From a virus (taxonomy: Duplodnaviria > Heunggongvirae > Uroviricota > Caudoviricetes): a stretch of DNA of 64,000 nucleotides. The notes under the pieces were generated by a model, which worked only from the letters and a program-made list of their open reading frames with translations, searched no databases and was not told where the DNA came from. Location of the stretch: positions 24,398 through 88,397 of the IMG/VR virus record IMGVR_UViG_3300046518_000157. One strand, given 5' to 3'. Positions 9,815 through 64,000 of the stretch are shown here, in pieces. The position numbers and the translations under genes are program-made. Within the stretch, counting starts at the first letter, position 1, and the number at the start of each line of letters is the position of its first letter.

Positions 9815-9824
9815 TCACAATATG
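9815..9824 (-). promoter_or_regulatory. Recurring promoter-like motif (minus TTGGTATAAG), upstream of gene 9485..9772
   Basis: Plus-strand cttataccaa. One of 14 copies, all in the same orientation and all 30-130 nt upstream of a minus-strand gene, tRNA or ncRNA. Confidence 0.45.
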
Positions 9825-9853
9825 CTTATACCAACAAGTACTAAATTATTGAA

Positions 9854-11112: not shown

Positions 11113-11419
11113 TCTCGATGATTACCTTGATTTCAGTTTCTGACAACTGAGTCGGCATGAAGCCTTGAAGAAGCTGGCGTTCAGCAATGAGAGCGCCTCG
11201 CTTAAGGTCATCCTTCTCATGTGCAAGCATTTCCGCAATGCCTTCAAGACCTTTCTTGACGATGCTAACTACTTCTTCATCAGTAGGGTCACGATTCTCT
11301 TTCTTCGTAGCTACTTGCTTGGCTTCACCAAGGACAGTACCAAGCTTAGTAAACGAAAAAGAATCACCGAGTTTCAGGGCTTCAACCCGCAGTTGTTGAA
11401 GGTGTGCGTAAAGAGTCAT
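10994..11419 (-). CDS. Hypothetical protein
   Basis: 141-aa ORF in the co-oriented gene string. Confidence 0.45.
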   Translation of the reverse strand: MTLYAHLQQLRVEALKLGDSFSFTKLGTVLGEAKQVATKKENRDPTDEEVVSIVKKGLEGIAEMLAHEKDDLKRGALIAERQLLQGFMPTQLSETEIKVIIENAALDNIGKIMAIFKNNYAGKYDGKLVSKLAGEFLSSKA

Positions 11420-13772: not shown

Positions 13773-13940
13773 GTCAATTCACCTTGAGGTCTTTGAAATT
13801 GTTATCGTCCGAAGACGTTGAGGCAGCCGGAGCCGCCGTTTGGGTTTGCACTGCGTCAGAAGCCTGCTGAGCGGATCCAGAGTCATGGTTGAAGGCGAAG
13901 TAGCCACCAACACAAACCAGGACCACCAAGAGGCTGCAAA

Positions 13941-14306
13941 TCAGTCGGTACACTTTTGTGACTCCTGCATCAGGGTGATCATCTTCACGTTGAATGCGGA
14001 CAGGCGATCCCGTGCATCTGTGGAATACTCATCCGACAACTTTTGACGATGAATAGGTGTATCAAAAGCCCCTGCGAAGGCCAGATACGCATCTTTCCAT
14101 TCGGCATACAGCTCTGCCGAAATGGTTACTTCTTTCTCAGGTCCGGGTTGGTGAAGCTGAGACCCGCCTTGGGGATCTACCCAGCAATACTGCGATAGCG
14201 GTGTCTGGTCTTCATAACGCTTCTTTCCTCGCCACATGTTTCCCGAAAGCCTCGTAGGAGCTAATACAATCGGGACCTTGCAGTGCTTACAAATGCCTTC
14301 GAACAT
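13941..14306 (-). CDS. Hypothetical Cys-containing protein; start revised to MFEGICKHCK...
   Basis: The ATG at 14304-14306 sits 2 nt after the TAA of the upstream microprotein (TAAacATG). The track's upstream extension to 14384 would read through that junction. Confidence 0.4.
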   Translation of the reverse strand: MFEGICKHCKVPIVLAPTRLSGNMWRGKKRYEDQTPLSQYCWVDPQGGSQLHQPGPEKEVTISAELYAEWKDAYLAFAGAFDTPIHRQKLSDEYSTDARDRLSAFNVKMITLMQESQKCTD

Positions 14307-21398: not shown

Positions 21399-21442
21399 CT
21401 CGTTAATTAGAATGCCCAGAATCTATTTCTGGGACTTTTGTT

Positions 21443-22600
21443 TTAGATACCAAGCATCTTGCGAATGATCGATGAGTGATCTTCGAAGATCAGTTCAGCG
21501 TGACTTAGTACATAGTCGATCTCGTACCAGTCTGTAGCCTTTTGCAAAGCGGTGCTTGCGACTGCATCGTCGCCACCCTTTACCTTAGGAAGCCCCGGCT
21601 TTTTGTCCGACTTATCCAGGTCAAAAAGAAAAGCGTGCGAAATAGTGCGCCCACGCAAACTACGGCCAGGATGATCAAAAACAACACCGGCAGACATACT
21701 ACCGCTAAGAAGACCTCTTGGAAGGTCAATCGAAGTTTCCTCTTGTAATTCACGGATCGCCGCATCTTCAAGCCTTTCATTTTGTTCCAGGAATCCTCCG
21801 GGTAATGCAAGGAGTCCTTCCCCCGGTGCAGCTTTACGCTTCACCATCAAAATATGACCAGCCTTCTTGACAATCGCATCGACAGTCACAAAGGTAGGTG
21901 CATACGGTGCTGCTTTCCAGGAGTCTTTGTACTTCTGCACCATCTTGTATTCACGTCCAAGACGCAGATACTCCGGAGTTTTGATGAACTCCTTGATGAA
22001 GCTAAAAGTGTACTCCGGAACCAAACTTTTGAGAAGCTCAATGAAACCAGGCTTCTCAAAGATTACTTCACGGATAGCTGTAGCATCAAAGCCAAGCTTG
22101 ACTTCGTCTACTGCAACGTAATCGTACTGCGGAAAGAGATCAAGGTAGTACGAGCTTTCGTCTTTCTTGTTACCGACGATTGCAACCTTGCTTTTTACAT
22201 CTTTGTCTGTCCAACCCTTTCCTGCCAAGAGAACAGTTGCTACTTCGTTTTGCACGGAAGTAACCCACTCATCATCTGAGTAGAGGTTATCCACAAGCGG
22301 AGCCGTGAAAATGTTCGAAGTACCAGCCGCTTGAATAACCATTTGCGAACGTTCATCGTACGTAAATGGATTCTTGATAGTGCGTGGTGCGTGCGAAGAA
22401 CCGATAAGAACCAATACCTTGTCAGCCACCATGAACGCCTTATTCAAAAGGATCTGGTGACCTACATGCAAGGGTTCGAAACGACCAATGACTACAGCCA
22501 GGTCGTATTGATTTTCTTCTGTGGATACTGCAAGTTGTTTACTGCCAAAAGTAGCTGCGTACATTTCAGCCACTTCATGATAAAGTTTACTATGTGACAT
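21443..22600 (-). CDS. nadM: Bifunctional NMN adenylyltransferase/ADP-ribose pyrophosphatase (NadM-Nudix)
   Basis: N-terminal nucleotidyltransferase motif VIGRFEPLHVGHQ (HxGH) and C-terminal Nudix box LPGGFLEQNERLEDAAIRELQEETSI. Confidence 0.8.
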   Translation of the reverse strand: MSHSKLYHEVAEMYAATFGSKQLAVSTEENQYDLAVVIGRFEPLHVGHQILLNKAFMVADKVLVLIGSSHAPRTIKNPFTYDERSQMVIQAAGTSNIFTAPLVDNLYSDDEWVTSVQNEVATVLLAGKGWTDKDVKSKVAIVGNKKDESSYYLDLFPQYDYVAVDEVKLGFDATAIREVIFEKPGFIELLKSLVPEYTFSFIKEFIKTPEYLRLGREYKMVQKYKDSWKAAPYAPTFVTVDAIVKKAGHILMVKRKAAPGEGLLALPGGFLEQNERLEDAAIRELQEETSIDLPRGLLSGSMSAGVVFDHPGRSLRGRTISHAFLFDLDKSDKKPGLPKVKGGDDAVASTALQKATDWYEIDYVLSHAELIFEDHSSIIRKMLGI

Positions 22601-31673: not shown

Positions 31674-32291
31674 TTAGTCGTCGTGCTTGCCGTCGTAATG
31701 ACCTTTCCAGTACCCTTTATTCAATTCTCCGTTTATTGCCTTAACAAGAGTTTGAGCGGGAGCTTCTCTCAGAGCAAGCATCATTGCGAAGTTAGCAATA
31801 TCGGTAGGGTCACCCTTGTACAAGTGTTCAACCAACATATCTGCAAGTTTATCAACACTGCACCTTTCAGGATTGTCCCAACCGCCACGACCTTTCTCCC
31901 GAGCTTTAGCGAGCTTCGCTTTCATCATTGCTGCAAACTTATCCACAGCAACGTCGTCGGGATGAGGTTCTTCAACGGGTTGTTTGAAGCCCTGAAACAT
32001 CTTCCTCAACTCTTCCATTCCCGCTTCAACTTGTCGAGCAGCTTCTGCAAAGGCCTCATACTGAGCAAATTGAACCGGAGACTTTTCATGTCCCAGAGCT
32101 TCAAGCATCATCTTCAGATCTTGCAAAGCAATTTCTCTATTCTTGTGCTGAGACCTGTGCGTATCACATGTAGCAGAAGCTCCTGTCGGGATATGAGTTG
32201 CACGAACCCCTACCCCCATAGAGGAGCCTACCCACGTTCTAGGCTCCGTATAAAACACATCTAACTTAATGTCTTTTGGATCAAGTTCCAT
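31674..32291 (-). CDS. Release-factor-like protein (class I RF / ArfB GGQ-domain homolog) lacking the GGQ motif, plus a C-terminal helical domain
   Basis: VRATHIPTGASATCDTHRSQHKNREIALQDL aligns with the RF1/RF2 segment RITH[LI]PTGIVVxCQxERSQHKNKxxALxxL. The preceding GGQ loop is replaced by the shorter GSSMGVGV. Confidence 0.55.
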   Translation of the reverse strand: MELDPKDIKLDVFYTEPRTWVGSSMGVGVRATHIPTGASATCDTHRSQHKNREIALQDLKMMLEALGHEKSPVQFAQYEAFAEAARQVEAGMEELRKMFQGFKQPVEEPHPDDVAVDKFAAMMKAKLAKAREKGRGGWDNPERCSVDKLADMLVEHLYKGDPTDIANFAMMLALREAPAQTLVKAINGELNKGYWKGHYDGKHDD

Positions 32292-42858: not shown

Positions 42859-43272
42859 TTACAACAACGGTAATCCGCCAGTGATGCTATCGATCTTATC
42901 TTCGAAGTCCGGACCTACTGCAATGCAGGTATTCGTTGGGACTCCGTTGAACTCAGTTAATCCTGCATCGGTGATCAAAGAAGTAATTATGCCAGCTTCC
43001 ATCGCTTTTGCATAGAGTGCCAGTAGCTCTTCTTCAGAATTTACATACACACATACTTTTTTGAAATTTCCTAAGAGCCAGTCTTTCATCCGCGTGTCTA
43101 CATGCAGATGAAAATATGTAAGCTCCTGCTCATTAACTCTTACCTCAGTGAGGTTTTCGTAATGGCCTTGATCTAGAATCGCCTTCATACTCGCATGAGC
43201 ACCTTGAGCGATCATCTTGCCTTTGCGCATATTCAAATCTTTGCGCATCACAATTACTTGCTTATGACTCAT
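42859..43272 (-). CDS. pth2: Pth2-family peptidyl-tRNA hydrolase
   Basis: QVIVMRKDLNMRKGKMIAQGAHAS and C-terminal LITDAGLTEFNGVPTNTCIAVGP match the archaeal/eukaryotic PTH2 conserved blocks. Confidence 0.7.
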   Translation of the reverse strand: MSHKQVIVMRKDLNMRKGKMIAQGAHASMKAILDQGHYENLTEVRVNEQELTYFHLHVDTRMKDWLLGNFKKVCVYVNSEEELLALYAKAMEAGIITSLITDAGLTEFNGVPTNTCIAVGPDFEDKIDSITGGLPLL

Positions 43273-52633: not shown

Positions 52634-52956
52634 TTATTTCTCCTTATTGCACAAGTGTACTTGCAACTCGTTCCCGTTAGGGAGGCTCGGGTCGAGGACG
52701 GCGTAGCCGTTCTAAGTAGGGACCCGAAGTTTATTACCAGAAAGTTACTCGCTGGCCTTCGTTTTAAAACACTAAAACAAACACATACTTGCAAGCTACC
52801 GTAAAACATCTACGGTATTAAAGGTACTACTGGGGTAAACTCGTGGTTGTGTACCTGGTCTGGGTAAAGACATCCTTCGATGTCTTCCCAGAGAGTAAAA
52901 GAGGAAGTAGCTTCCTCTACCATCTGCTATTACGATGACTATACTTTACCCAGATA
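52634..52956 (-). ncRNA. Structured ~320-nt leader or ncRNA between a promoter-like motif and gene 52280..52633
   Basis: Multiple strong hairpins, including gcaagt-gt-acttgc, acggc-gta-gccgt nested inside cgggtc/gacccg, gaagacatc-cttc-gatgtcttc and gaggaag-ta-gcttcctc. No ORF. Confidence 0.35.
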
Positions 52957-52981: not shown

Positions 52982-55402
52982 TTAAAGACGCGGATCCATT
53001 TCTTTCTCTTGGTTGAGTTGCGAGATCATCTTCACAATCAACTCAGTCATTGCAGGACCGTTGTCAGCCGAAAGCATCTTCGTTGCCAGTTCGAACTCCT
53101 TGATAGAGACCTTCAGTTTACCACCAACTCGCTTCTGCTTGCACAGTGCTTCGTAGCGACGTTTGTAGTCGAAGCCATAGACGAGAGTCAGGTAATTTTC
53201 ATTCCGGACTTTCATATACGGTGCTACGTCTTCAGGTCCGGCGAGAGGTTTAATGACAACACCCTCCATGCCGTGTTCGATAGTCAGTTCCTTGAAGAAG
53301 TTTTCAGCCATTTGCAGCTGGCTCTCATCATCGAGATCGATGACCAGCCAGTCATCCCCATTCACTTCATCGAATGAGTCAGCTTGTTCAACGCGAGTAA
53401 ATACATTGCCATCGATTTTCAGAATTGCAAACGGCTTGTAATATGGCTCGCCAGTTGCGGAGTACAGATTCAGCGTATCCGAAAACGTCTTCAGATCGTT
53501 CTCAAGCAAATCCTGAGCATCGATCTTCTGCTTAAAGTCAAGCTTAGCAAATTCTTCGTCCTGAGCAAGTGTCGAAAGCTCATAGTGTACAAGACCTTCA
53601 TACGCTTTGAACTGCTCTTCAACAAGACCAGTACCAAGAGTCGTCCACGGCAGAAGCTCACCGTCCAGAATAAGTTCATCGAACGAATTCGGAAGGAACT
53701 TTTCTTCATACTCAGCAAGAAGCTTCTGAAGCATAACAGTAAGCTCTTCTGTCATGCGAATCTTGAATCCATTTCTGGAAACAAGGAAACACTTCTCCGG
53801 TTGACCGTGATACAGATACGCCTGACAACGTGAGCCCATGTACTTCGGTTGAATAGCAACCTGATCTACACCCTTGTCTTTGAAGTACTTAAGACCAGCT
53901 TCAAGGCTTTCGATCTTACCTTCGGTTGACGGAGCCGGAGCCATCGTACCAGAAATGTACTTAATGCCGTTCTTCAGCGTACGATTCAAAAACTTCATGT
54001 CGTCTGGAGACAACTTATAATCATAAATGCTGAAGGGACGCTCCTTCAAACCGATAGGTACGGTCAAGTCAGACTTCAACTCTTTTTGATGCTCGACCAG
54101 CGACTCGGTCTTGACATCGACGTAAACATATCGATTGTTTTTGTACGAAAACGCAGTAAGCTTGTTACCGTACACTGCTCCGGTATCCAGGAAGATCTTG
54201 TTACGGAACTCAATCTTACCGGCATTGTGAGCAACGTGACCGAATACATGAATAGGATGGTTACGAACAGCCTGATCGAAGATGAACTTGTACGCTTCAC
54301 GATAGTCTTTATCACGACGACCGAAAAGATTACGCTGCGCCTTAAGTGCATCATTGCTCAGCTTACCCAGATACTTGTTTTCACAAGGAGCATGGGTTAC
54401 ATACACGGTTCGTATATCCCGTCCAAATACTTTCAGGAACGGAGTAGAGTGATTGTCAAACAAGTCAACAAGCACGGCGGCAAGGTCAGGACGTTCCAGG
54501 AGAACCTTAAGTGAAGACATATACTTAGCCTCCAGTTCAAGATCAGGATTTTTGATTTCGCCCTTGATACGCTTCACAGCGTAGCTCTCATGGTTTCCGT
54601 GAATGATACGGCCACCTTCGTCAACAAACTTTGAAACCAGCCGAAGCATGTTCTCCGTGTCATTGCCTTTGTCTAGATAATCACCTACAAGAACGTTGAT
54701 ACTGTCCTTAGGCAACTTCTCCAGCATTTCAGTAAGACCCTTAACGTGCTCATGGGTATCACCGATGATGTTCAGCTCTTTGTTCGAAGTCAAGTACAAG
54801 CTGCTCTTGGCATAAACATCGAGGTCTTTGATTTCAACTTCGATATCAGCCCAGTACTTCGGATCACGTTCACGGATACGGATGTTTCCGTCGTGTTCTT
54901 TTCGGCCAAGGTTAGGAAGAACGTGCTGCTTAAAACGAGCTGCACTGCTGTCTACTACTAGCTTTTCTTCCGGCGTAGATTCAGACGAATATGACTTATT
55001 GGTGTACTCGAAAGTAACCAGTTCAGTACGATACTCGTTGGTTTCCGCAAGAGTCCTGACTTTCTTTCGGAACTCGTCGTTCATGCCAGTCGTATCAACG
55101 ATCACGAACTCGCTGTTGACAGGGAACATGATCGCAGCTTCAAGTTTCGCCATCAAGACCTTAAACGCGGCCTCTGAAGCCTCCGCCATGAGCGGGGAAT
55201 ACCGATGGAGGTTCTTATGGCCGTAAAGGCTCTCACGCTCGGAATCGGAGCTGATAATAGGAATTGCACAGCTCGCTCCAAGCCCTGCTTTGGCCATTTC
55301 TTCGCCAAGCGCAAGTTGAAGTTGGTGTGAGAACGTGCTCTTACCGCACATCGAAGGTCCGACGAGAATAAAAACGGTATGGAGCTTAGTTTCGATTTTC
55401 AT
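52982..55402 (-). CDS. pnkp: Polynucleotide kinase-phosphatase with a C-terminal ligase-like domain (bacterial Pnkp-type RNA repair enzyme)
   Basis: N-terminal P-loop (LVGPSMCGKST), a central calcineurin-like phosphoesterase (IIGDTHEH, GDYLDKGND, HGNHE), and a ~350-aa C-terminal domain with a candidate nucleotidyltransferase lysine (QPKYMGSR). Confidence 0.7.
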   Translation of the reverse strand: MKIETKLHTVFILVGPSMCGKSTFSHQLQLALGEEMAKAGLGASCAIPIISSDSERESLYGHKNLHRYSPLMAEASEAAFKVLMAKLEAAIMFPVNSEFVIVDTTGMNDEFRKKVRTLAETNEYRTELVTFEYTNKSYSSESTPEEKLVVDSSAARFKQHVLPNLGRKEHDGNIRIRERDPKYWADIEVEIKDLDVYAKSSLYLTSNKELNIIGDTHEHVKGLTEMLEKLPKDSINVLVGDYLDKGNDTENMLRLVSKFVDEGGRIIHGNHESYAVKRIKGEIKNPDLELEAKYMSSLKVLLERPDLAAVLVDLFDNHSTPFLKVFGRDIRTVYVTHAPCENKYLGKLSNDALKAQRNLFGRRDKDYREAYKFIFDQAVRNHPIHVFGHVAHNAGKIEFRNKIFLDTGAVYGNKLTAFSYKNNRYVYVDVKTESLVEHQKELKSDLTVPIGLKERPFSIYDYKLSPDDMKFLNRTLKNGIKYISGTMAPAPSTEGKIESLEAGLKYFKDKGVDQVAIQPKYMGSRCQAYLYHGQPEKCFLVSRNGFKIRMTEELTVMLQKLLAEYEEKFLPNSFDELILDGELLPWTTLGTGLVEEQFKAYEGLVHYELSTLAQDEEFAKLDFKQKIDAQDLLENDLKTFSDTLNLYSATGEPYYKPFAILKIDGNVFTRVEQADSFDEVNGDDWLVIDLDDESQLQMAENFFKELTIEHGMEGVVIKPLAGPEDVAPYMKVRNENYLTLVYGFDYKRRYEALCKQKRVGGKLKVSIKEFELATKMLSADNGPAMTELIVKMISQLNQEKEMDPRL

Positions 55403-56709
55403 GCTTGATCCTTGTTCTTAGTTACTACCACCATCGTCGAAGTAGCAATGTTATTTACACTATCACCGATTCCTTGAACAGAAATAGAGATTGCATGACC
55501 TTCCGAAACATTCCAGAACCAGTCACCGAATTCTTTAAGGCCCGGCTCCCACTTGTGATCATCATGACGGAACTGTGTTTCGTCCATCAGATAGTTCACA
55601 TTGAATTCCTTGTTAGGAACCGTGAGAATCAGCTTGTTGAAGTTAGTCTTCAGCACGGCTTGAATCAGCTCTGCTGCGACATCCTTTTCCATGTGTTCAA
55701 GCACTTCAGTGATGAGTACATCAGCTCCATCGAATAGAGCGCTGCAATCGTCAATTGATTCAGGAGTTGCTGCTTCTTTGAAGGTGATATTCTCAACTCC
55801 TCGACCACTGGCTTTCCCCACGGCGTTCTCACGTACTTCGTCATCCGCTTCATACGCAAGGATTTGTTCATACTTTGCACTGAGCGGGATCGAATAATTG
55901 AGTTCGCCGCACCCAATGTCAATGAGGACCGACCCTCCTCCCAAATGCGGGAAGATAGCCTCTTTACGTTGACTGAGAGTGTCCCCGTGCCAGAGGTTAA
56001 TACTGGGCGTATCGAGCAACGGCTTGTTTTTAGCAAAGGTTTCACGATTCGTAAACACATTCCGTTTAAAGAGGTATCGGATGAAGTAAGGTGCATCGAT
56101 GCGATTAATTGCATTGATGTACTTTTCAATGATATCTCCCTTAAGGTTGACGTAAATGCTCTTTGTCGTAACGCAGAACATCAAGAAAATAACCATTGCT
56201 GCATTCAGAAGATGATGAACACTAGGTCCGACAATGCGAACTTTGTATGCATGACCAGAAATCAGTTCTGCATGAAAGCTGTAGCCTTGATCGAAACCAA
56301 ACGGCCCATTGAAATGTTGCTCCATGTGCCTAAGCGTGCTTGCACTGCGAATCTCAACCGTAGTTTCGAGCCATGCGCTAAAAGGAACACTAGCATCTTC
56401 TTCCTGATGTTCTTTGAACGCAGTTGCCAGGCAGTTCGTCATCAGGCTAATCGGAAGGTACGGCGAAGCATAGCGAGTACGATCAAGATACTCAAACTCC
56501 TGGTCCCGCCCTTCGGCAAATGAGCAGTGCAGAGCATGATCCTTGAACCACAACCTAAAAGCTTGGTCTCCTTCTAGAAACCATCCGTACACTGAACCTT
56601 GTCGGATGGACTTCTTAAACGGATCTTTCGATTCACGAATCGTTGCGGGGTTTTTCTGAATGACCCAAGAAAACTTCGGGTTACTAGACCCAAGAGTAAG
56701 CACTGACAT
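55399..56709 (-). CDS. hen1: Hen1-like RNA 3'-terminal 2'-O-methyltransferase
   Basis: C-terminal Rossmann MTase motif I (VLIDIGCGE) with Hen1-type metal ligands (EVLEH ... RHDDH). A 4-nt overlap couples it to pnkp. Confidence 0.6.
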   Translation of the reverse strand: MSVLTLGSSNPKFSWVIQKNPATIRESKDPFKKSIRQGSVYGWFLEGDQAFRLWFKDHALHCSFAEGRDQEFEYLDRTRYASPYLPISLMTNCLATAFKEHQEEDASVPFSAWLETTVEIRSASTLRHMEQHFNGPFGFDQGYSFHAELISGHAYKVRIVGPSVHHLLNAAMVIFLMFCVTTKSIYVNLKGDIIEKYINAINRIDAPYFIRYLFKRNVFTNRETFAKNKPLLDTPSINLWHGDTLSQRKEAIFPHLGGGSVLIDIGCGELNYSIPLSAKYEQILAYEADDEVRENAVGKASGRGVENITFKEAATPESIDDCSALFDGADVLITEVLEHMEKDVAAELIQAVLKTNFNKLILTVPNKEFNVNYLMDETQFRHDDHKWEPGLKEFGDWFWNVSEGHAISISVQGIGDSVNNIATSTMVVVTKNKDQA

Positions 56710-56780
56710 TATTTAACCTTTTTGGAAGAGAGGTTTATGGACGACATAAATGATAGGACGAATCCTATCGTAATACTTCA

Positions 56781-56790
56781 CTTATACCAA
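56781..56790 (-). promoter_or_regulatory. Promoter-like motif TTGGTATAAG (minus), upstream of hen1-pnkp
   Basis: Plus-strand cttataccaa, 72 nt upstream of the start at 56709. Confidence 0.45.
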
Positions 56791-56792
56791 AA

Positions 56793-56981
56793 TCATAGGT
56801 ATTGTGTGAAAGGTCCAGTTGGATCTGGTTGGCGAGTGAAGGTTGCTGGGCCTTTAAAGGCGTCTTCATAATAACCGCAAGACTTACATTCTACCCAAAG
56901 AGGTGCATTGACTAGACGGTGTTTATTCAATTCGCCGCATTCAGGGCATTCTTCTAGGATATTGGTCATTGCAGTTTCCAC
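56793..56981 (-). CDS. Small zinc-ribbon protein
   Basis: CPECGEL...CKSCGYY. Confidence 0.4.
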   Translation of the reverse strand: METAMTNILEECPECGELNKHRLVNAPLWVECKSCGYYEDAFKGPATFTRQPDPTGPFTQYL

Positions 56982-57970
56982 ATTTCGTAAGACCGTTTTA
57001 CATCTTCGGTCAGTTGTTCCAATTTCAGACTATCTACCATTCTCTGAAAGGCTTCTCTGTCTTCACCTCTGTAATCAGACATGAAGTTTCCAAGCTCTTT
57101 ACCGGTAAGGCCAGTCCACTCAGATACGTTATTACCGTTGAACTTATCCTTAACACGCTCTGCTCGGAAATAGTCAAGCGTGGCCTTGATAAAGTTCAGA
57201 CCTATCTCTTGTGGCTCAGCTTCAGAAGCCAGCAGGATGCCGAGATCTTTTGAACCTCGCTTATCATTAAGATGTTTATTATCCATCCACTCCAAGAAAA
57301 GCATATACGTATTGCGTTTCTTATCACGGACTCGGCCTACAGCATTACGATTTTCCAACAGGTAATTCCACTTAGTGAAGTACTTGCTTGAGATTACGTA
57401 TTCAAAGATAGCTTCCAGGTTATCAAATCCCAATGCATACCTGGAAGGGTCGTATCCGAGAAGATCGAGGGCCTTTTCAAAGTTCTGAGTGATACAGATT
57501 TCTTTGACAAGAGTGGTTCCGACGATGTACTTATACCAGAGACCGTCGTGGCCAAACTTGAGACCGAGCCCATGAGCAGTCTGACCGATAAGATTACCAA
57601 GATCATTGAAAGCAAAATACTTAAAGGCAAAGTCATGGATTTCTCTAGGGACGGTAATGAAATCAATTTGAAAAATGGTTCGCTTAAACATCAAACCAGA
57701 AATGTCTAAAGCGAAAGAGATAACGTTTCCGTTAGTGTGAACCTCAGGAGAGTTAAGAGCTTTTTCGCAAAACTCTCTAAGAGTCTTTATCTCAATACCT
57801 GAAATCAGAATGTCAAGATCACCAAAACTCTCTTTCTCTCTATATGCCGGAATAACTGAAATGATTGCGTCTGGAAAAGCTTCTTTAAGAACAGTACTCG
57901 TACCTTCTGCTACATAGTCGTAGTACTGTTTCTCCAGACGGACTGCATTGCTGATTGCATTACCGCCCAT
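56966..57970 (-). CDS. Putative pol-beta-superfamily nucleotidyltransferase
   Basis: KESFGDLDILIS resembles the minimal nucleotidyltransferase hG[GS]...D[IL]D[IL] motif. The rest is unassigned. Confidence 0.35.
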   Translation of the reverse strand: MGGNAISNAVRLEKQYYDYVAEGTSTVLKEAFPDAIISVIPAYREKESFGDLDILISGIEIKTLREFCEKALNSPEVHTNGNVISFALDISGLMFKRTIFQIDFITVPREIHDFAFKYFAFNDLGNLIGQTAHGLGLKFGHDGLWYKYIVGTTLVKEICITQNFEKALDLLGYDPSRYALGFDNLEAIFEYVISSKYFTKWNYLLENRNAVGRVRDKKRNTYMLFLEWMDNKHLNDKRGSKDLGILLASEAEPQEIGLNFIKATLDYFRAERVKDKFNGNNVSEWTGLTGKELGNFMSDYRGEDREAFQRMVDSLKLEQLTEDVKRSYEMWKLQ

Positions 57971-57977
57971 GACTTCC

Positions 57978-58196
57978 TCACTTTTTTGCAGCTACAAGAT
58001 CTGAACCAAACTTTACAACGATAATTACGAGTGCAACCGGAAGGGTGATCGGCCAGAACAGACAAGCAAAGCCAAGCAGAAGTCCATACACAAACATATG
58101 AATCGTGTGGTAAGGCAACTGACGTTTCTTGTTAAGACCAAGAGCTACCGTAAAGGCAGCTACCCACAACAGAATTGCGAATAACAGATAGTCCAC
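57978..58196 (-). CDS. Small two-helix membrane protein
   Basis: 72-aa hydrophobic ORF. Confidence 0.35.
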   Translation of the reverse strand: MDYLLFAILLWVAAFTVALGLNKKRQLPYHTIHMFVYGLLLGFACLFWPITLPVALVIIVVKFGSDLVAAKK

Positions 58197-58922
58197 TTAA
58201 TTCTCCTTGACGGCCTTATCGACCTTATCCAAAATAGTAAGCACCTTGTCAATATCAAACTTGTCTTCAGTGCGAGCACCGGATTCAAGATCGATCCAAA
58301 CGAAGCCTTCTTCCACATCTTTGTGTTGCTGTAGCAATTCGAACACTGTTTGTTCTACGTTGTCTACGTTGATTCCACCTGCATAACCTACGTCATACCG
58401 GCTAGCCCAAGGTTCTGGAATATCCGGCCATCCTGCTTCCTGCCAGGAAATACCTCTGCCGCCAGAAGCGTCAAGGAGAATTTTCAGATCAGGAGGTACA
58501 TCTTCATCGAACATTCCATTGAGAAGAATGTCGGTGTTCTGACTATACTGGACGATTACAGTATTCTTCTCAGCCTTTGCGAATTCAAAGATCAAGTCTT
58601 TGTTTTCCGCAGTCAAGAAATTGAACTGAACTGCGTTGTACCCTAGCGTTACTTCGTTTTCGAAATGTTTCCAAGAAGACAGAAACGCCTCTACCGATTT
58701 GCCACAAAGATGCGCAGCAAGAGTGTAGTATTCACCTCTATCGTTCGTTGCCCAGTACAGCTTCTCCCTCCACTGTGCTGTTGGGTAACGAGGTTGGCCC
58801 TCACGGGATTTAGAAAATAGAATGCCCCATTCAACGAATGGATATTCACGACCGATATCATCCAGAATCGACGGATCAACTTCGTCGTCTGCGCCGGTAA
58901 TAGTAACGCCTAGTTCAATCAT
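58197..58922 (-). CDS. Hypothetical protein
   Basis: 241-aa ORF. Confidence 0.45.
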   Translation of the reverse strand: MIELGVTITGADDEVDPSILDDIGREYPFVEWGILFSKSREGQPRYPTAQWREKLYWATNDRGEYYTLAAHLCGKSVEAFLSSWKHFENEVTLGYNAVQFNFLTAENKDLIFEFAKAEKNTVIVQYSQNTDILLNGMFDEDVPPDLKILLDASGGRGISWQEAGWPDIPEPWASRYDVGYAGGINVDNVEQTVFELLQQHKDVEEGFVWIDLESGARTEDKFDIDKVLTILDKVDKAVKEN

Positions 58923-58931
58923 TGTTATTCC

Positions 58932-59426
58932 TTACGCTAGAGCTGCGGCTTCCGTAGCCAATTTATCTGCAAACTCGTTCCACTTATTTCCCGAATGGCC
59001 TTTTACCCATTGCCATTTAAGCGGAGGAGCCTTTTCTACCAAAGAGTCTAGTCGTTTCCAAAGATCCTGGTTCTTTACAGGCTTCTTATTGGAGCCAATC
59101 CAGCCTTTAGCTTTCCAACCCTTAATCCATTCTGTAATACCTTGCATGACGTATTTGGAGTCAGTAATGATAGTAATATCCTTTTCTCCGTCCAGCATCT
59201 CTAATGCAGAAATAACAGCCATTAACTCCATACGATTATTTGTCGTATCTTTTTCCCCACCATTACCACTGTGCAGATACTCCCCATCATTATAGGTGAA
59301 TACATATCCGTGCCCACCCTTACCAGGGTTATTAAGGCATGCACCGTCAGTGTAAATTACTACTTTATCTACTTCCATTATTTCTTTCGCCAAAAGCGTG
59401 TTGATTGAGACGTTTATCTTCTTCAA
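58932..59426 (-). CDS. rnhA: Ribonuclease HI
   Basis: VIYTDGACLNNPGKGGHGYV, NNRMELMAVISALE, ITDSKYV and QWVKGHSGNKWNEFADKLA match the RNase H catalytic motifs. Confidence 0.8.
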   Translation of the reverse strand: MKKINVSINTLLAKEIMEVDKVVIYTDGACLNNPGKGGHGYVFTYNDGEYLHSGNGGEKDTTNNRMELMAVISALEMLDGEKDITIITDSKYVMQGITEWIKGWKAKGWIGSNKKPVKNQDLWKRLDSLVEKAPPLKWQWVKGHSGNKWNEFADKLATEAAALA

Positions 59427-60012
59427 AAGCTCGTTCTACAGACCATCTATTTTCTATTATCCTGCTATACATCAATTTTCTATCCAAGTGTAATCTATTA
59501 CACCAGTTCACTAGCAAATCAGTTTCGCCTTTATATGTCAGCTTCACCGTAACGCCTCTATTAAGCGTCTGTTCTAAAGGAGTAGACCATCTACAATTTT
59601 CAAGGCTGTATTCTTTATCGGAGTCTATCCTATCCAAAGTCATACCCTCCGGACGTTCGCCCATATCTGCTAAGAAACCTTCGAACGATAACCATTTTTC
59701 ACATATAAAGATGCCTCTGCCCCCATACAAATAGTAGTTATCGTCGTTAGGATTTAAACATCTACTTTTCATTTTTGACCAGGAAGTGTAAGTCCTGGAG
59801 GTATGCATCCCATGTTTTAAATTTGACGTTCTACCTACACATCCGCATGATACAGTTGCCCCTGATTTCAAGGCATCTCTACTTATAGATTTATCAATGC
59901 CACATTGACATTTGCAAATCCACATTCTACTGTCTCCGCTTTCGAAGTCCGGTTTAATAACCGTCACCTTCCCAAACACTTGACCGGTTATGTCTTTCCG
60001 GACTTTCCACAT
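59365..60012 (-). CDS. HNH homing-endonuclease-like protein
   Basis: LDRIDSDKEYSLENCRWSTPLEQ is a typical HNH motif; Cys-rich N-terminus. It overlaps the RNase H start by about 60 nt, so the true start may be internal. Confidence 0.55.
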   Translation of the reverse strand: MWKVRKDITGQVFGKVTVIKPDFESGDSRMWICKCQCGIDKSISRDALKSGATVSCGCVGRTSNLKHGMHTSRTYTSWSKMKSRCLNPNDDNYYLYGGRGIFICEKWLSFEGFLADMGERPEGMTLDRIDSDKEYSLENCRWSTPLEQTLNRGVTVKLTYKGETDLLVNWCNRLHLDRKLMYSRIIENRWSVERAFEEDKRLNQHAFGERNNGSR

Positions 60013-60013
60013 A

Positions 60014-61723
60014 TTACGCCTTCTTTTTAAATAACATATCGTTAATTGCTTCTTGAGTTACTCCACGATGGACTTGTTCCACCTGGCCCCAGTTAAAACC
60101 GATTTCACCTTCAACACCAATCGGAAGAGTCAGCCAATCGAAATTCTCTACTGGCCATTCATTCATGTAATAGAATGCCGTCTCGATTACTTCTGCCGCA
60201 CGCTCAATCGGTACTTCGAATTCAACTGAGTCATACACAGTACAGATACTTTTACAACGAGGGTCGATCTTTTGAATTGCTTGGTTAAGATGCGCAAATG
60301 TAACTAGACCAAGAGTCGAAGTTGCACTTTGAATCCGTACATTCTGAGCATTGCGCAGTGATGCGTTATAAGCTGCGGTCTTCTTGAATACTTCCTGTGC
60401 TACATACTCATGTTTGTACTGACCAAATGGTGTCCAGACTTTCTGGTTCCAACGTGCCATATTGTGTGACTCTTCAATATAATCCTTAACTCCAGGGTAT
60501 GCATTGAAGTACATATTAACCAGACGTTCAGCTTCAGACTTGTCCAACTGCAACTGCATTGCAATACCACCTACTGAAGAACCATAAAGTATCGAAAAAG
60601 TTAAAACTTTTGCAACTTGTCGCATGCGTTTGTATTCTTTTTGGAGAGAATTACTCTTATCTTCCAAAATATGAATATATTCTTCGTATGACACGCCCAT
60701 CATCGCACTGGCAGAATACGAGTGAAAGTCCAAGCCCTCGGCAATCGCCTTAAGCATATTCTTGTCACGACAGATTGCGCCTAGAATCTTAACTTCAGCA
60801 GAACTAAAGTCAAAGGCAATAAATACATTGCCGCTATCAACGATGTAGCACTCTCGTACATTGTATCCATGTTTAGGACGTGGAAGCTGCGTAAGATTAG
60901 GACTGTCGCCAGTGATCCGAAAGCTGCTAGTGCCAAACATGTTATAGCTAGGATGAATCCGACCATCACGCTTAACAAAGTCCTCCACATACGTCTTGAT
61001 GAAAGTATTGTGAACACTATTAATATCCTTTCTCTTAGCCATATCTGCAAGGAACTGCAGCTTAGGATCTGGAGCATCATACTGGTTAGCCAGAGGATTT
61101 AACCCTGCCAGTGTGAGCAATGCCGCACCGTCAGTTGCATCATCACCAGACTTTGTCTTAAACGGAGCTACGAATCCAAGTTCTTCATAAAGCAGCTTAC
61201 CAACTTCTGTACCAGAGTCTAGATTGATTCTTTTACCGATTGCAGTAAAGATTTTTTCATCAAACTCTTCAACTTCACGAACCATCTGTTCAGAGATCTT
61301 GCGGTTACGATCAACGTCGTATGCCATGCCATTGATTTCAAGATCGATAATGAACTCGTGACAGAACATTTCTGTGTTGATCACTGATTCGATGATCGCC
61401 GGAGCCTTTGCCTTAATCGGCGCTCCATTGGGACCTACAATCTGCACTTCTTGAGGTTTTACTAAATCAGACCATAGACCTGTCAGGACTTCTGAAGTGA
61501 CAATGTTATCAATACCTGCATAGACGTAAAGATCTTCACTATCATAATCTTCATACGTTCTATAAATCTTCTTCTCAGCTACAGGTTCTTCAACCTTCGG
61601 TTTAGGCTCTGCTTTCTTGCGAGTCTTTTTCCCAACAGGTGTTTCTCGTACTTCAGCAATGACCTTCTCTTCTAGTACTTGCTCAGTCGAGGTCTTTGGC
61701 TTTGGGTCAATACGCTTAATCAC
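60014..61723 (-). CDS. DNA polymerase I (family A), polymerase domain
   Basis: Motif A (DFSSAEVKILG), motif B (RQVAKVLTFSILYG) and motif C region (VHDSVEFE). Confidence 0.8.
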   Translation of the reverse strand: MIKRIDPKPKTSTEQVLEEKVIAEVRETPVGKKTRKKAEPKPKVEEPVAEKKIYRTYEDYDSEDLYVYAGIDNIVTSEVLTGLWSDLVKPQEVQIVGPNGAPIKAKAPAIIESVINTEMFCHEFIIDLEINGMAYDVDRNRKISEQMVREVEEFDEKIFTAIGKRINLDSGTEVGKLLYEELGFVAPFKTKSGDDATDGAALLTLAGLNPLANQYDAPDPKLQFLADMAKRKDINSVHNTFIKTYVEDFVKRDGRIHPSYNMFGTSSFRITGDSPNLTQLPRPKHGYNVRECYIVDSGNVFIAFDFSSAEVKILGAICRDKNMLKAIAEGLDFHSYSASAMMGVSYEEYIHILEDKSNSLQKEYKRMRQVAKVLTFSILYGSSVGGIAMQLQLDKSEAERLVNMYFNAYPGVKDYIEESHNMARWNQKVWTPFGQYKHEYVAQEVFKKTAAYNASLRNAQNVRIQSATSTLGLVTFAHLNQAIQKIDPRCKSICTVYDSVEFEVPIERAAEVIETAFYYMNEWPVENFDWLTLPIGVEGEIGFNWGQVEQVHRGVTQEAINDMLFKKKA

Positions 61724-62969
61724 TTTCTACCTCATCTTCTTCAGTTTCTTCAGTTTCTTCGGCGGCATTCTTAGTTAGTTTAGGTAGGAGGTCTTCATAA
61801 CCACCTAATCCAGTCCAAGGAACAATATCCCAGACTGCAGTTTTCAAACTATAAGTACCCTGCGCACCACTATCAAGACTATGAAGAACAAGCAAAGTAT
61901 CAAAAGCCATATTTTTCACCCGTACTTTGGTAGTGTGCCAAATGTACAAGATATCGAACTTAATGTTGTGCCCTACCTTCGGTCTTGGCCCTTCTAAGAA
62001 AGGAGTAACCAAAGCCCATGCTTCGTCTCCACTATACATCTTGTTCTCACGATGCCACAGTGGAACTACCAATGCTTTAACTTCTTTGTCAATTGGATCT
62101 CGATACCCGAACTGAATACAAAGCAGTTTGGCATTTTCAGCCAGCCCGTCTAAGCTGGTCGTTTCAGTATCTAGACTGATGATTGAGTTTGCTGGCAAAC
62201 CATCAATGATAGCCATGAACTCTTTTACTTCTTCAATGCTTCGTGCAATGCGAATACGGTTCTGTTTATAAAACTCAATCGCTTCAGCTAACGTAGGCGG
62301 TTTAAGATGACCACGAGCCATTGCTGCGGCCTTCTTGAAGTCTCGGAGAATCACACCATACAACTCTTGTCCCCAGAAGGCTCCAGAGGCGTTCTGACGA
62401 ATCATCGTCAATGCTCTTGGATGGATTGTGATAACTACGTTATCAACATACTCACCACGATTACCAGTATTGCTGTGTTTCTTATAACCCAACGCTTTAG
62501 TCACAACTGTTGCCAGACTGATGATGACCTTTGGTTTACAACGATCTATCTCAGCTAAAAGATAAGGTTTACATTTCATTAGCCGTGTTGCAGTTGGTGC
62601 TTTCCCTTTTGGAAAGTCTTCTTCTGTCGGACTACATTTAAGCAAGTTCACCAATCGGTACTTCAACGTTCCAAACCCTGCTTGTTTACAGAGATGGTGA
62701 ATGATATCCTGCTGGATCTTTTCTTGCTGACCCTCTACTCTATCCCACTTCCCAGCGGGTGCCGCGTGATCCTGGATAATCAGAATATCAACTTCGTTTT
62801 GAGCAAGGCGAACAGCATCATACGATTTACATTTGAGCTTACAGACTTTGTCGCAATACGTCTTACTGATCTTGCTAAAGTCTTCCTTGCTATGGATTGC
62901 CACTTCTACAGACGTTGTAATCTTTCTCTCATACAACTCGTTCAGTGGAAGATCTGAGATCTTCGCCAT
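61716..62969 (-). CDS. 3'-5' exonuclease domain protein of the split family-A polymerase (N-terminal extra domain possibly UDG-like)
   Basis: Exo I motif ISLDTETTSLD; ends 8 nt into the polymerase gene start. Confidence 0.6.
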   Translation of the reverse strand: MAKISDLPLNELYERKITTSVEVAIHSKEDFSKISKTYCDKVCKLKCKSYDAVRLAQNEVDILIIQDHAAPAGKWDRVEGQQEKIQQDIIHHLCKQAGFGTLKYRLVNLLKCSPTEEDFPKGKAPTATRLMKCKPYLLAEIDRCKPKVIISLATVVTKALGYKKHSNTGNRGEYVDNVVITIHPRALTMIRQNASGAFWGQELYGVILRDFKKAAAMARGHLKPPTLAEAIEFYKQNRIRIARSIEEVKEFMAIIDGLPANSIISLDTETTSLDGLAENAKLLCIQFGYRDPIDKEVKALVVPLWHRENKMYSGDEAWALVTPFLEGPRPKVGHNIKFDILYIWHTTKVRVKNMAFDTLLVLHSLDSGAQGTYSLKTAVWDIVPWTGLGGYEDLLPKLTKNAAEETEETEEDEVESD

Positions 62970-63034
62970 TTGTTTCTTATTCCTTGTAAAACACTATTAT
63001 CTCATTGAACGAGCGGCTCAACAAGACTTGACTT

Positions 63035-63517
63035 TTAGTGACTATAGTACGCTGAAACCATCATTACTGGTTCCGTGTAGCTTATACCATACTTCTCACA
63101 AAAATTGCGCAGCCTATCGATATCATCTTGTGTTACGCCAAGACATTCTTTATCAAGCTCTGCTGGTTCCCAGATTTCTCCTAGAGATAAATTCTTAGTA
63201 TACAGAATATAACCAGGATAGTCACACGTGCCATACTTGGTAATACCTACTCCATAGTTTTCGAAAGCGTTATTTTTCCGCTTCCAGTACTCGCTGTATT
63301 CCTTGCTATTTTTCTCACAGTACTCTTCTTCAGGGCGCTTAATATTGAGTTCTTTTAAAATCAATTCCTGAATAGCATCTTCGACACCATCTTCAAGCTC
63401 TTCTATACCCAGAGCATTAGCGAGAGCTTTCTCGAATTCTTCGAACTCTTCCCATGCACTATCTGAACTACCTACATTTATCCCGAAGGACAAATTCATA
63501 TGAATATCCAAACCCAT
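63035..63517 (-). CDS. Hypothetical acidic protein
   Basis: 160-aa ORF. Confidence 0.4.
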   Translation of the reverse strand: MGLDIHMNLSFGINVGSSDSAWEEFEEFEKALANALGIEELEDGVEDAIQELILKELNIKRPEEEYCEKNSKEYSEYWKRKNNAFENYGVGITKYGTCDYPGYILYTKNLSLGEIWEPAELDKECLGVTQDDIDRLRNFCEKYGISYTEPVMMVSAYYSH

Positions 63518-64000
63518 TACTTACCTTCATGAAAAATCTTGAATGAACCTTGACTTACCGGCAGGGACGTAAGCTTAGGAACTTCCTTTATAACCTCGAT
63601 TGAACTTCGCATTACTTCTCTTGAAGCTGGTTTGTTAGCATCGGGAATCAACGACCAGGTATGATCATCGATAGCCACCAGCCTCTTTACCTTCCTAGTG
63701 AACGTACCTTGCCTGAAGCATTCAAGGTAGTCGTAGAAGTTAATGCCTACTTCGTGAAGCATTTGAATCTTCTCAGCAGTGTTTTTATGAAGCAACTCTG
63801 AGTTGTTGAAGACCGAGTGCGCAGCCATGCTGACACTGTTCTTACGAGCATCCCACTGACGCCAAACAAAGTAATCATACGCCTGATCCCATTTTGGGAA
63901 TTGAAATACACGAGCGTCGAACACAGGACGTGCTGCGAACTTGTTTGGCAAAAAGCCTTGAAGATAGCTGTTAAAGATCACCGAGCACTTAGCAGCGTAC
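63517..64000 (-). CDS. Possible Thg1-like protein (tRNA 5'-end 3'-5' nucleotidyltransferase), C-terminal part; the 5' end lies beyond the window
   Basis: DARVFQFPKWDQAYDYFVWRQWDARKNSVSMAAHSVF resembles the Thg1/TLP conserved segment (...R.V.YP....V.DYF.WRQ.D..INNLYNT.FW), recalled from memory. The reading frame continues open to the window edge. Confidence 0.35.
   Translation of the reverse strand, partial: YAAKCSVIFNSYLQGFLPNKFAARPVFDARVFQFPKWDQAYDYFVWRQWDARKNSVSMAAHSVFNNSELLHKNTAEKIQMLHEVGINFYDYLECFRQGTFTRKVKRLVAIDDHTWSLIPDANKPASREVMRSSIEVIKEVPKLTSLPVSQGSFKIFHEGK

Follow-up and report, generated by a model that had tools for sequence, protein, structure and literature searches.

Closest Described Systems

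The closest described relatives of the locus reported here are the bacterial Pnkp/Hen1 systems, the mechanism of which has been described (PMC4411300, PMC3675462) and whose sole characterized role is the repair of ribotoxin damage (PMC4411300). In the canonical form, known from Clostridium thermocellum and Anabaena variabilis, the two genes make up an operon: Pnkp is a fused kinase-phosphatase-ligase, and Hen1 joins an N-terminal ligase-activating domain to a C-terminal Mn-dependent 2'-O-methyltransferase. The PNKP-type ligase represents an RNA-sealing family that is activated by Hen1 (PMC4411300). A different arrangement occurs in Capnocytophaga gingivalis, where Rnl and Pnkp1 are made as two polypeptides, hen1 lies apart from their genes, and the three products assemble into a Pnkp1-Rnl-Hen1 heterohexamer (4xrp; PMC4411300). 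The same logic of healing and sealing tRNA cut by a host nuclease is followed by Pnk and Rnl1 of phage T4, which counter PrrC; their phosphatase (HAD) and ligase families are unrelated to those of the Pnkp described below, and because they include no methylation step the repaired tRNA is left open to re-cutting.

A phage-encoded kit of the Hen1-Pnkp kind is not new, having been reported earlier from a few giant phages. Pnkp, Hen1, Thg1 and tRNA arrays were noted in the Xanthomonas jumbo phage XacN1 (2018), which also carries Pth and has 56 tRNAs, and for which its authors proposed tRNA repair (PMC5852040); the RNA-repair repertoires of jumbo phages were reviewed in 2021 (PMC7824862). The first-pass annotation of the present DNA had presented its set of genes as going beyond the T4 Pnk/Rnl paradigm, a claim of novelty that these two reports anticipate. 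Hen1 adjoins a PNKP-type ligase, as it does here, in XacN1 (ORF197-199), Vibrio phage RYC, Stenotrophomonas phages CM1 and RAS14 and Vibrio phage vB_VpaM_sm033, but the proteins are only 28-30% identical to ours. The domains are also distributed differently: XacN1 encodes a small kinase as a protein of its own in addition to Hen1 and a protein with the ligase alone, and in RYC the ligase precedes a fused Hen1-kinase, whereas here Pnkp is fully fused.

Organization of the Locus

The window, that is, the whole stretch of 64,000 nucleotides of Caudoviricetes DNA that was analysed, contains a bicistronic hen1-pnkp unit that probably encodes a full machinery for repairing RNA breaks, of the bacterial Pnkp/Hen1 type but divergent, and likely serves counter-defence. 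The features to which the text refers are the following:

7907-8028, minus strand: YrlA-like RNA (E 2.8e-6, under the Rfam gathering score)
52900-52918, minus strand: terminator-like hairpin, 64 nt past the pnkp stop, with an 8-bp stem and then a T-rich tail (consensus scan, a pattern match only)
52982-55402, minus strand: pnkp, 806 aa, predicted trifunctional 5'-OH kinase, 2',3'-phosphatase and RNA ligase
55399-56709, minus strand: hen1, 436 aa, predicted RNA 3'-terminal ribose 2'-O-methyltransferase with an N-terminal ligase-activating domain
56752-56769, minus strand: hairpin with a 7-bp stem, within the 83-nt spacer upstream of hen1
56793-56981, minus strand: small CxxC...CxxC zinc-ribbon reading frame, which probably starts at the ATG at 56969, overlapping the stop of the nucleotidyltransferase (sequence read)
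56966-57970, minus strand: nucleotidyltransferase of an uncharacterized family, 334 aa, family-X-polymerase-like, with palm and thumb at about residues 1-205 and then a C-terminal helical domain
58197-62969, minus strand: DNA-replication block with a PRAI-like TIM barrel, RNase H, HNH endonuclease, PolA and a UDG-like/3'-5' exonuclease (Pfam and PHROG matches)
63517-64000, minus strand: C-terminal 160 codons of a Thg1-like 3'-5' nucleotidyltransferase gene, truncated by the window end

Both hen1 and pnkp lie on the minus strand exactly where the first-pass annotation had placed them, and the translational coupling that it proposed agrees with the sequence, in which the stop of hen1 and the start of pnkp share 4 nt (ATGA). 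Given the 7-bp hairpin upstream of hen1, a weak indication, the two genes may be a separate bicistronic unit. The zinc-ribbon frame has weak Pfam matches to zinc-ribbon and Lar models and a homologue at the equivalent position in a related phage, L011 (3e-17). The DNA-replication block is not part of the repair pair: L011 preserves its gene order, yet without hen1 and the ligase. At this locus L011 retains only a kinase-dead kinase-phosphatase remnant of the Pnkp type, and the RNA-repair system is therefore dispensable.

Domains and Active Sites of Pnkp and Hen1

All three domains of Pnkp are recognized by Pfam: the kinase by AAA_33 (33.6 bits against a cut-off of 27, residues 10-135), the phosphatase by Metallophos (38.6 bits, residues 212-393) and the ligase by PNKP_ligase (96.7 bits against 28.2, residues 480-777). 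Across 31 homologues with 37-100% identity, the residues of each site are invariant, namely K21 (within GxxxxGK(S/T)), D53 and R56 in the kinase; D215, H217, D241, N270, H271, H337, H385 and H389 in the phosphatase; and K520, E582, E713, K718 and K731 in the ligase. The solved structure that best matches the phosphatase is that of C. thermocellum Pnkp (4j6o, 8e-9), with the motifs GDxH, GDxxDxG, GNH, HA and GH aligned and invariant, as in a binuclear calcineurin-type enzyme. The closest solved structure to the ligase domain is the Capnocytophaga Rnl of the heterohexamer (4xrp_B, 5e-38), to which it scores 134 bits, as against 44 bits for the C. thermocellum Pnkp ligase; QPKYMGSR aligns with the motif I lysine of both enzymes, and EGVVIKP with motif IV. 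From sequence alone, no similarity of the kinase domain to solved kinases was detectable, and Capnocytophaga Pnkp1 was not among the matches found for Pnkp.

The N-terminal domain of Hen1 matches Hen1_N (PF22032) with 168 bits against a cut-off of 27, and the Pfam methyltransferase matches of the C-terminal part are weak, below cut-off by themselves. Nonetheless, the protein aligns over its full length with the Capnocytophaga Hen1 chain (4xrp_C, 2e-29), the top solved match here as for the ligase, and its methyltransferase domain aligns with the C. thermocellum and Anabaena Hen1 structures (3jwi/3jwg), TEVLEH and RHDDHKWE falling on the metal-site motifs (E-x-x-E-H ... H) of solved Hen1. Among 33 homologues (33-100% identity), the SAM-motif residues G266, G268 and E269 (DIGCGE), together with E335, E338, H339, R381, H382, D384 and H385, are invariant. 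In each of the four active sites, three in Pnkp and one in Hen1, the catalytic residues thus stay invariant down to about 35% identity.

The pair therefore carries every catalytic motif of the canonical bacterial system, as well as its Hen1 architecture and two-gene operon, and differs from the Capnocytophaga system in having one fused 806-aa protein and a hen1 gene that overlaps pnkp. It is, however, very divergent. Against the NCBIfam equivalog models, Hen1 scores 63.7 bits with TIGR04074 (cut-off 340), which covers the methyltransferase part alone, and Pnkp 142.8 bits with TIGR04075 (cut-off 750). Because these scores are so far below the cut-offs, activity is extrapolated over a large distance, and by these scores Pnkp is a divergent branch and not the canonical bacterial equivalog.

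The domains that the first-pass annotation had assigned, a kinase P-loop, a calcineurin-type phosphatase and a ligase-like C-terminal domain in Pnkp and a 2'-O-methyltransferase with the E-x-x-E-H / H site in Hen1, are borne out by these matches. As findings that would speak against its reading it had named failed domain searches for the methyltransferase or the ligase, the former of which is instead supported by the alignments with solved Hen1 and the latter by Pfam, and a Thg1-like frame that lacks a catalytic N-terminal domain; none of them was made.

Pairing of hen1 and pnkp across Viruses

A survey of IMG/VR and other contigs gave 37 viral Hen1 loci, grouped into 29 lineages. A PNKP-type ligase lies within 10 kb of hen1 in 28 of the 29, almost always directly downstream and on the same strand, and in 21 lineages it belongs to a fused kinase-phosphatase-ligase. 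Close relatives (65-100% identity) fall into roughly 17-20 clusters, every one of which has both genes. Judged from sequence, with domain content, conservation at the four sites, gene coupling and this recurrence all directly observed, the window pair is a complete, divergent phage version of the bacterial Hen1-Pnkp system.

Proposed Mechanism and Biological Role

From the characterized bacterial systems we infer the substrate of hen1-pnkp, the order of its steps and its biological role. A metal-independent ribonuclease would cut RNA, most plausibly in a tRNA anticodon loop, and leave a 2',3'-cyclic phosphate and a 5'-OH. The Pnkp phosphatase domain would remove the cyclic phosphate, the kinase domain would phosphorylate the 5'-OH, and Hen1 would methylate the 2'-OH of the 3'-terminal nucleoside, after which the ligase domain, activated via the N-terminal domain of Hen1, would seal the break. 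The methylated junction would then resist a second cut at the same site.

The rest of the window is rich in functions related to RNA and translation. The tRNA genes number 22, 21 found by ARAGORN (about 21 had been expected) and one tRNA-Phe by Rfam only, and include an amber suppressor and an odd tRNA with a 2-nt anticodon call. Ro60, predicted by the first-pass annotation, is encoded at 5594-7252; the accompanying Y RNA has a candidate in the YrlA-like RNA. One of two expected Pth2 homologues was found (42859-43272) and the second was not, and the proposed DHH nanoRNase-like protein (2844-3701) is a weak assignment in which DHHA1 passes the Pfam cut-off (29.8 against 25.9 bits) and DHH fails. 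The same phage also encodes an RF-1-domain hydrolase and a SAK-type HAD phosphatase.

Part of this inventory would also suit a role in the metabolism of the phage's own RNA, in which Hen1-Pnkp would process, circularize or 2'-O-methyl-protect the phage tRNAs or Y-like RNA, or mend damage done by a phage host-shut-off nuclease. The 22 tRNAs, with their two unusual members, and Ro60 with the YrlA-like RNA point in that direction; 27 of the 37 viral hen1 loci, however, lack any tRNA gene within 10 kb, neither tRNA introns nor split tRNAs were seen, and ribotoxin damage repair is the one role characterized for the family (PMC4411300). We regard this possibility as distinctly unlikely. The most reasonable reading by analogy is that the pair likely acts in counter-defence against host RNA-cutting nucleases, such as those of tRNA- or rRNA-cleaving abortive infection, since the phage combines its tRNAs, Ro60 and Y-RNA-like gene with Pth2, the hydrolase and the HAD phosphatase; phage precedent and the rationale for counter-defence are available (PMC5852040, PMC7824862). 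To this extent the extensive counter-defence toolkit of the first-pass annotation is reasonable; the role that it gave to the nucleotidyltransferase found no support, nor did a statistical association of Thg1 with hen1.

The Nucleotidyltransferase

The product of 56966-57970 has the Pol-beta fold that had been predicted, with a DxD...D triad in the palm and a YF..D..N pocket in the thumb that retains Pol beta positions Y271/F272/D276/N279. These motifs are shared with family X polymerases (Pol beta, Pol lambda, ASFV PolX), from which the protein differs in starting at the palm, without the N-terminal 8-kDa/fingers domains, in its extra C-terminal helical domain and in giving no Pfam or NCBIfam match at E 0.01 or below, PolX models included. 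Its sequence resembles that of a family X DNA polymerase. Identity as a CCA-adding or tRNA nucleotidyltransferase was rejected, neither a class I/II fold nor a Pfam match being found, and so was identity as RlaP, whose model (PF10127) does not match it and does detect a true RlaP (53 bits) in the 371-kb contig L043.

RlaP, a Pol-beta superfamily enzyme encoded beside RNA repair ligases, demonstrates that restoration of RNA 3' nucleotides exists (PMC12776372), and may be a functional analogue should the nucleotidyltransferase act on RNA. The latter would then cooperate with the zinc ribbon, Hen1, Pnkp and Thg1, restoring 3' nucleotides while Thg1 rebuilt 5' ends before sealing. A homologue with 28% identity in L043, which comes from a distant jumbo phage, shares 26 nt with the start of hen1, in an operon that runs on to an HD protein, pnkp and the RlaP gene, so that a true RlaP coexists with the window-type enzyme; the Pnkp-like kinase-phosphatase of L011 still has the nucleotidyltransferase and zinc ribbon next to it. 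On the other hand, of the 55 viral lineages in the family only two carry Hen1/Pnkp at 10 kb or less, and the neighbours mostly serve DNA and nucleotide metabolism, the usual ones being NAMPT, RNase H, NMNAT-Nudix, DNA ligase, primase-helicase and thymidylate synthase, and the family occurs in conjugative elements too. The nearest structures are DNA gap-filling polymerases, the Tyr-Phe sugar-gate position of Pol beta is kept, and the RlaP and CCA-enzyme matches are lacking. Such cooperation appears rather unlikely, and the repair of tRNA 3' ends assigned to this protein by the first-pass annotation is not upheld; most likely it belongs to the DNA replication/repair block.

It could also be imagined that the PolX-like enzyme and the Pnkp domains together fix DNA nicks and gaps bearing 3'-phosphate and 5'-OH ends, like eukaryotic PNKP-Pol beta-ligase or ASFV PolX-ligase. 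The PolX fold, the position within the DNA replication block and the recurrence of ATP-dependent DNA ligase and RNase H beside the family would fit. But Hen1 requires a ribose 2'-OH, is coupled to pnkp and, in 28 of the 29 viral lineages, is inherited together with it, and the ligase is of the Hen1-activated RNA-sealing family (PMC4411300), which makes a DNA substrate for the pair very improbable.

The Thg1-like Protein

The Thg1-like frame at the window end is real: the fragment matches PHROG 4717 (2e-27), and a sister contig encodes a 301-aa protein (L002:6907-7812) whose residues 142-301 agree with its 160 aa at every position. The full-length protein matches Pfam Thg1 (PF04446) with 94 bits, through a catalytic domain that falls outside the window. 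The gene lies about 7 kb from hen1-pnkp, beyond DNA polymerase genes. In L045 a Thg1 gene sits between hen1 and pnkp, as the cooperation outlined above would have it, but Thg1 is not significantly enriched near viral hen1 (4 of 29 against 4 of 55 lineages, p = 0.44), and its proposed membership of a joint toolkit was not sustained. Most likely the gene encodes a separate, predicted tRNA 5'-end enzyme, only loosely linked to hen1-pnkp in this genome. Neither ARAGORN nor Rfam found a tRNA-His gene, a pointer to a G-1 role, among the window tRNAs. The best match of the full-length protein is the Bacillus thuringiensis Thg1-like protein (4kgk, 1.8e-33), to which its FDG and SDE motifs (catalytic D and DE) align; the phage-encoded protein differs from this bacterial relative in a 40-aa N-terminal extension.

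The Hen1–Pnkp pair

Every gene of the hen1–pnkp region is carried by the minus strand, and the pair itself is arranged as follows:

52982–55402, minus strand: pnkp, 806 aa, with kinase, phosphoesterase and ligase domains (Pfam)
55399–56709, minus strand: hen1, 436 aa; N-terminal Hen1 domain (168 bits), class I methyltransferase at the C-terminus

The stop codon of hen1 and the start codon of pnkp share the tetranucleotide ATGA, with a ribosome-binding site (AAGGA) 8 nt upstream; a terminator-like hairpin lies 3' of pnkp and a weaker one 5' of hen1. Pfam recognizes three domains in Pnkp, namely a kinase of the P-loop type (AAA_33, 33.6 bits), a phosphoesterase of the calcineurin type (Metallophos, 38.6 bits) and an adenylyltransferase/ligase domain, for which the PNKP ligase model scores 96.7 bits (cut-off, 28.2). 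Among solved structures, Hen1 matches 4xrp_C, from the Capnocytophaga Pnkp1–Rnl–Hen1 complex, from end to end (2e-29), and its methyltransferase part matches the catalytic domains of the C. thermocellum and Anabaena Hen1 proteins; structure alignments identify TEVLEH and RHDDHKWE as its metal-binding motifs. The ligase domain of Pnkp is much closer to the Rnl subunit of the Capnocytophaga complex (5e-38) than to its counterpart in C. thermocellum Pnkp (8e-11), and its motif I lysine (QPKYMGSR) and motif IV (EGVVIKP) align with solved ligases, while the nearest solved structure of the phosphatase domain is that of C. thermocellum Pnkp (4j6o).

The active sites are strictly conserved. Across 31 Pnkp homologues (37–100% identity), the invariant residues include K21, D53 and R56 of the kinase, D215, H217, D241, N270, H271, H337, H385 and H389 of the phosphatase, and K520, E582, E713, K718 and K731 of the ligase; across 33 Hen1 homologues (33–100% identity), E335, E338, H339, H382, H385 and the SAM motif do not vary. 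The Hen1–Pnkp pair proposed in the first-pass annotation is thus borne out for every domain of both proteins.

The two proteins score far below the canonical bacterial families, at 142.8 bits against an NCBI equivalog cut-off of 750 for Pnkp and 63.7 against 340 for Hen1, and their similarity to the Capnocytophaga three-protein system is one of sequence that does not extend to architecture. Their sequences place them within the Pnkp/Hen1 RNA repair system as a divergent branch. Since the standard bacterial equivalog models miss this branch, its genes are under-annotated, and databases label them ‘predicted kinase’, ‘methyltransferase’ or ‘hypothetical’.

Distribution among viruses

A megablast search with the 5-kb region found zero matches in 50,697 GenBank phage records, and the cultured relatives with the closest PolA (45–47%) are Salmonella phage Arash and the Vibrio phages D69, D148 and D181. 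A Hen1 homologue occurs in only five of the 50,697 records (XacN1, RYC, CM1, RAS14 and vB_VpaM_sm033); a PNKP-type ligase adjoins it in all five, but in a split or otherwise fused form. The scan of IMG/VR for Hen1 gave 34 loci on contigs of 9–530 kb, which together with three metagenomic contigs make up 29 lineages. By this tally the pair spans at least 29 viral lineages, with a PNKP-type ligase gene within 10 kb of hen1 in 28 of the 29. The fused kinase–phosphatase–ligase is present in 21 of them, nearly always directly 3' of hen1, and the gene order hen1→pnkp is almost universal among the viral lineages with the pair. In metagenomes, full-length fused Pnkp forms more than 120 clusters (36–100% identity), a few of them on megabase contigs, so that the divergent fused form is not exclusive to viruses.

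Other RNA-related genes of the window

The genes concerned, apart from most of the tRNA array, are listed here together with an NAD+ salvage pair:

5594–7252: Ro60
7731–7788, minus strand: second, fainter YrlA match, beside the next
7907–8028, minus strand: YrlA (Y RNA-like), covering the whole model (E 2.8e-6) at 39.8 bits, below the gathering score of 69
10014–10742, minus strand: HAD phosphatase of the ‘Swiss Army Knife RNA repair’ (SAK) family (PF18143, 68 bits)
10994–11419, minus strand: YqeY/GatB-like protein, RNA/tRNA-related
19992–22600, minus strand: NAD+ salvage pair, a NAMPT-type phosphoribosyltransferase followed by an NMN adenylyltransferase–Nudix fusion
31674–32291, minus strand: RF-1-domain (GGQ peptidyl-tRNA hydrolase) protein, 205 aa, with faint similarity to PrfH
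37443–37515, minus strand: tRNA-like gene with a two-base anticodon, ‘ct’ (ARAGORN; Rfam 49.9 bits), right after tRNA-Met
38676–38751, minus strand: amber suppressor tRNA, anticodon CUA (‘Pyl’ in ARAGORN; Rfam 74.8 bits, the best tRNA score in the window)
41553–41625, minus strand: tRNA-Phe (GAA), missed by ARAGORN (Rfam 48.8 bits)

The tRNA array, previously put at about 21 genes, is real and rises to 22 with the tRNA-Phe added by Rfam. The gene at 37443–37515 is possibly a tRNA with an odd anticodon loop. Stop codons in the 58 predicted genes are TAA (39), TGA (16) and TAG (3), and a search for TAG read-through as a sign of recoding by the amber suppressor found no clear gene extensions.

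The YrlA-like match sits approximately 650 nt upstream of the Ro60 gene, and the SAK-type phosphatase and YqeY/GatB-like genes are far from hen1–pnkp. Two Pth2 homologues had been reported, of which one is confirmed; Pfam scans of 40 further ORFs and phmmer with the confirmed protein against all window ORFs did not find the second. The 205-aa RF-1-domain protein may be what was taken for it, and may itself act as a ribosome-rescue factor.

Proposed mechanism and role

Hen1–Pnkp repairs RNA and renders the mended site immune to a second cut. To our knowledge, it has been studied with bacterial proteins in vitro only, and a phage-borne pair offers a direct biological test, in which knock-out phages would meet hosts that defend themselves by cutting tRNA. 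If the pair works as the reconstituted bacterial Pnkp/Hen1 systems do (PMC4411300; PMC3675462), the Pnkp phosphatase would act on the RNA break, followed by the kinase; Hen1 would then carry out 2'-O-methylation, and Hen1-activated sealing would yield a cleavage-resistant junction.

The RNA and translation genes of the window (tRNAs, Ro60 with the YrlA-like RNA, SAK-type HAD phosphatase, YqeY, RF-1 hydrolase and Pth2), together with the NAD salvage pair, match the counter-defence repertoire of jumbo phages (PMC7824862), and by this analogy counter-defence is the best-supported putative role of the pair. That survey, from 2021, lists RNA ligases, kinases, phosphatases, TROVE, RlaP, CCA enzymes, Thg1 and PTH2 as an anti-defence set and never mentions Hen1. 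The first-pass annotation saw in such a toolkit a step beyond the T4 paradigm, a novelty that does not hold, because phage XacN1 had already been described with PNKP, Hen1, Thg1, a CCA enzyme, Pth and 56 tRNAs, and tRNA repair proposed for it (PMC5852040). With these two precedents the phage RNA-repair kit as such is already known; what the present case adds is the fully fused Pnkp in a phage of approximately 182 kb (181,476 and 181,869 bp in two contigs), the breadth of viral Hen1–Pnkp and an unnamed PolX-like family.

The Thg1-like gene

The ORF cut by the window end (63517–64000, minus strand) matches PHROG 4717, tRNA-His guanylyltransferase (2e-27). Looking up the 160-aa protein that neighbours it led to sister contigs, one of which (L002) carries the whole gene. 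There the product has 301 aa, its last 160 residues are 100% matched by the window fragment, and it contains the Pfam Thg1 catalytic domain (94 bits). The doubt as to whether a catalytic domain lay beyond the window is therefore removed, and the gene is confirmed. Of the solved structures, the Bacillus thuringiensis Thg1-like protein comes closest to its product (1.8e-33), with eukaryotic Thg1 well behind. ARAGORN and Rfam found no tRNA-His gene in the window.

Thg1 lies within 10 kb of hen1 in four of the 29 lineages, compared with four of 55 near the nucleotidyltransferase described below, so that its enrichment at viral hen1 is not significant (p = 0.44). In one contig (L045) it sits between hen1 and pnkp; 1.7 kb 3' of that operon is a protein with a PARP catalytic domain and WGR (12864–14114). 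The 160-aa ORF coupled to Thg1 showed conservation only among near-identical contigs. Upstream of the Thg1-like gene, the sister contig encodes a 269-aa reverse transcriptase just past the window end (3769–4578 of L002; RVT_1, 80 bits), together with an ORF resembling ribosomal L12.

The PolX-like nucleotidyltransferase

56966–57970, minus strand: PolX-like nucleotidyltransferase, 334 aa

This protein has zero matches in Pfam and NCBIfam, and its sole named match is a PHROG labelled ‘DNA polymerase’. Its family comprises at least 1147 proteins of phages, plasmids and bacteria, every one unnamed, and emerges as a large PolX-like family of mobile elements. CCA-adding enzymes stand at about 6.3 in the comparison list of the protein. 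Matches in a viral structure library are phage ‘DNA polymerase-like’ proteins and giant-virus PolX. The family profile aligns weakly but coherently with the Pol beta palm, where GDLD corresponds to D190/D192, QxD to D256, and YFxFNDLGN to Y271, F272, D276 and N279, and the residues aligned to these sites are invariant across the family. The retention of Y271/F272, which we take to be the Pol beta sugar gate, argues that the enzyme would use dNTPs. Pfam and structure comparisons rule out RlaP (PF10127), CCA-adding enzyme and NTP_transf_2 identities.

A related phage contig (L011) encodes a nucleotidyltransferase of 47% identity and keeps the gene order UDG/exonuclease, PolA, RNase H, TIM-barrel protein, nucleotidyltransferase, zinc ribbon and ribonucleotide reductase; its locus has neither hen1 nor ligase. 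At the pnkp position (9252–10589) stands a 445-aa kinase–phosphatase-like protein, 35% identical to Pnkp residues 1–450, which has intact phosphatase motifs but other residues in place of the P-loop Lys and the catalytic Asp/Arg; it could be either a remnant or a Pnkp1-like precursor. Further homologues of the nucleotidyltransferase occur in a conjugative element and a Burkholderia island.

The IMG/VR scan with the family alignment gave 149 matches, the best 80 of which represent 55 lineages. Among these, Hen1/Pnkp lies within 10 kb in only two lineages, and the recurrent neighbours are NAMPT and NMNAT–Nudix (the commonest in other viral contigs), RNase H, homing endonucleases, primase-helicase, ATP-dependent DNA ligase, thymidylate synthase and dCMP deaminase; the family therefore mostly adjoins DNA-metabolism genes. 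Its gene is nevertheless directly upstream of hen1–pnkp in two phage lineages with only about 29% identity between their Hen1 proteins. In one of them, a 371-kb contig (L043), the homologue has 28% identity and its gene runs 26 nt into the start of hen1; beyond hen1 come an HD protein, pnkp and a genuine RlaP gene. It is conceivable, albeit improbable, that the family is a second, RlaP-independent RNA-repair polymerase that replaces nucleotides removed by RloC and similar nucleases, ahead of methylation and sealing by Hen1–Pnkp; if so, it and the Thg1-like 3'-5' polymerase would together allow the phage to restore a gapped tRNA break on both of its sides.

Two further features of this neighbourhood were observed:

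58197–58922, minus strand: 241-aa protein weakly similar to phosphoribosylanthranilate isomerase (TrpF-like TIM barrel)
59365–62969, minus strand: DNA polymerase A split into two proteins, one UDG-like with a 3'-5' exonuclease and the other the polymerase proper; an HNH endonuclease gene stands between polymerase and RNase H

In L011, the corresponding position beside the nucleotidyltransferase is taken by a protein with 42% identity to this TIM-barrel protein; another contig (L081) has a homologue at a distance of 8.7 kb. The split polymerase also occurs in several Hen1-bearing contigs (L018, L019 and L035).
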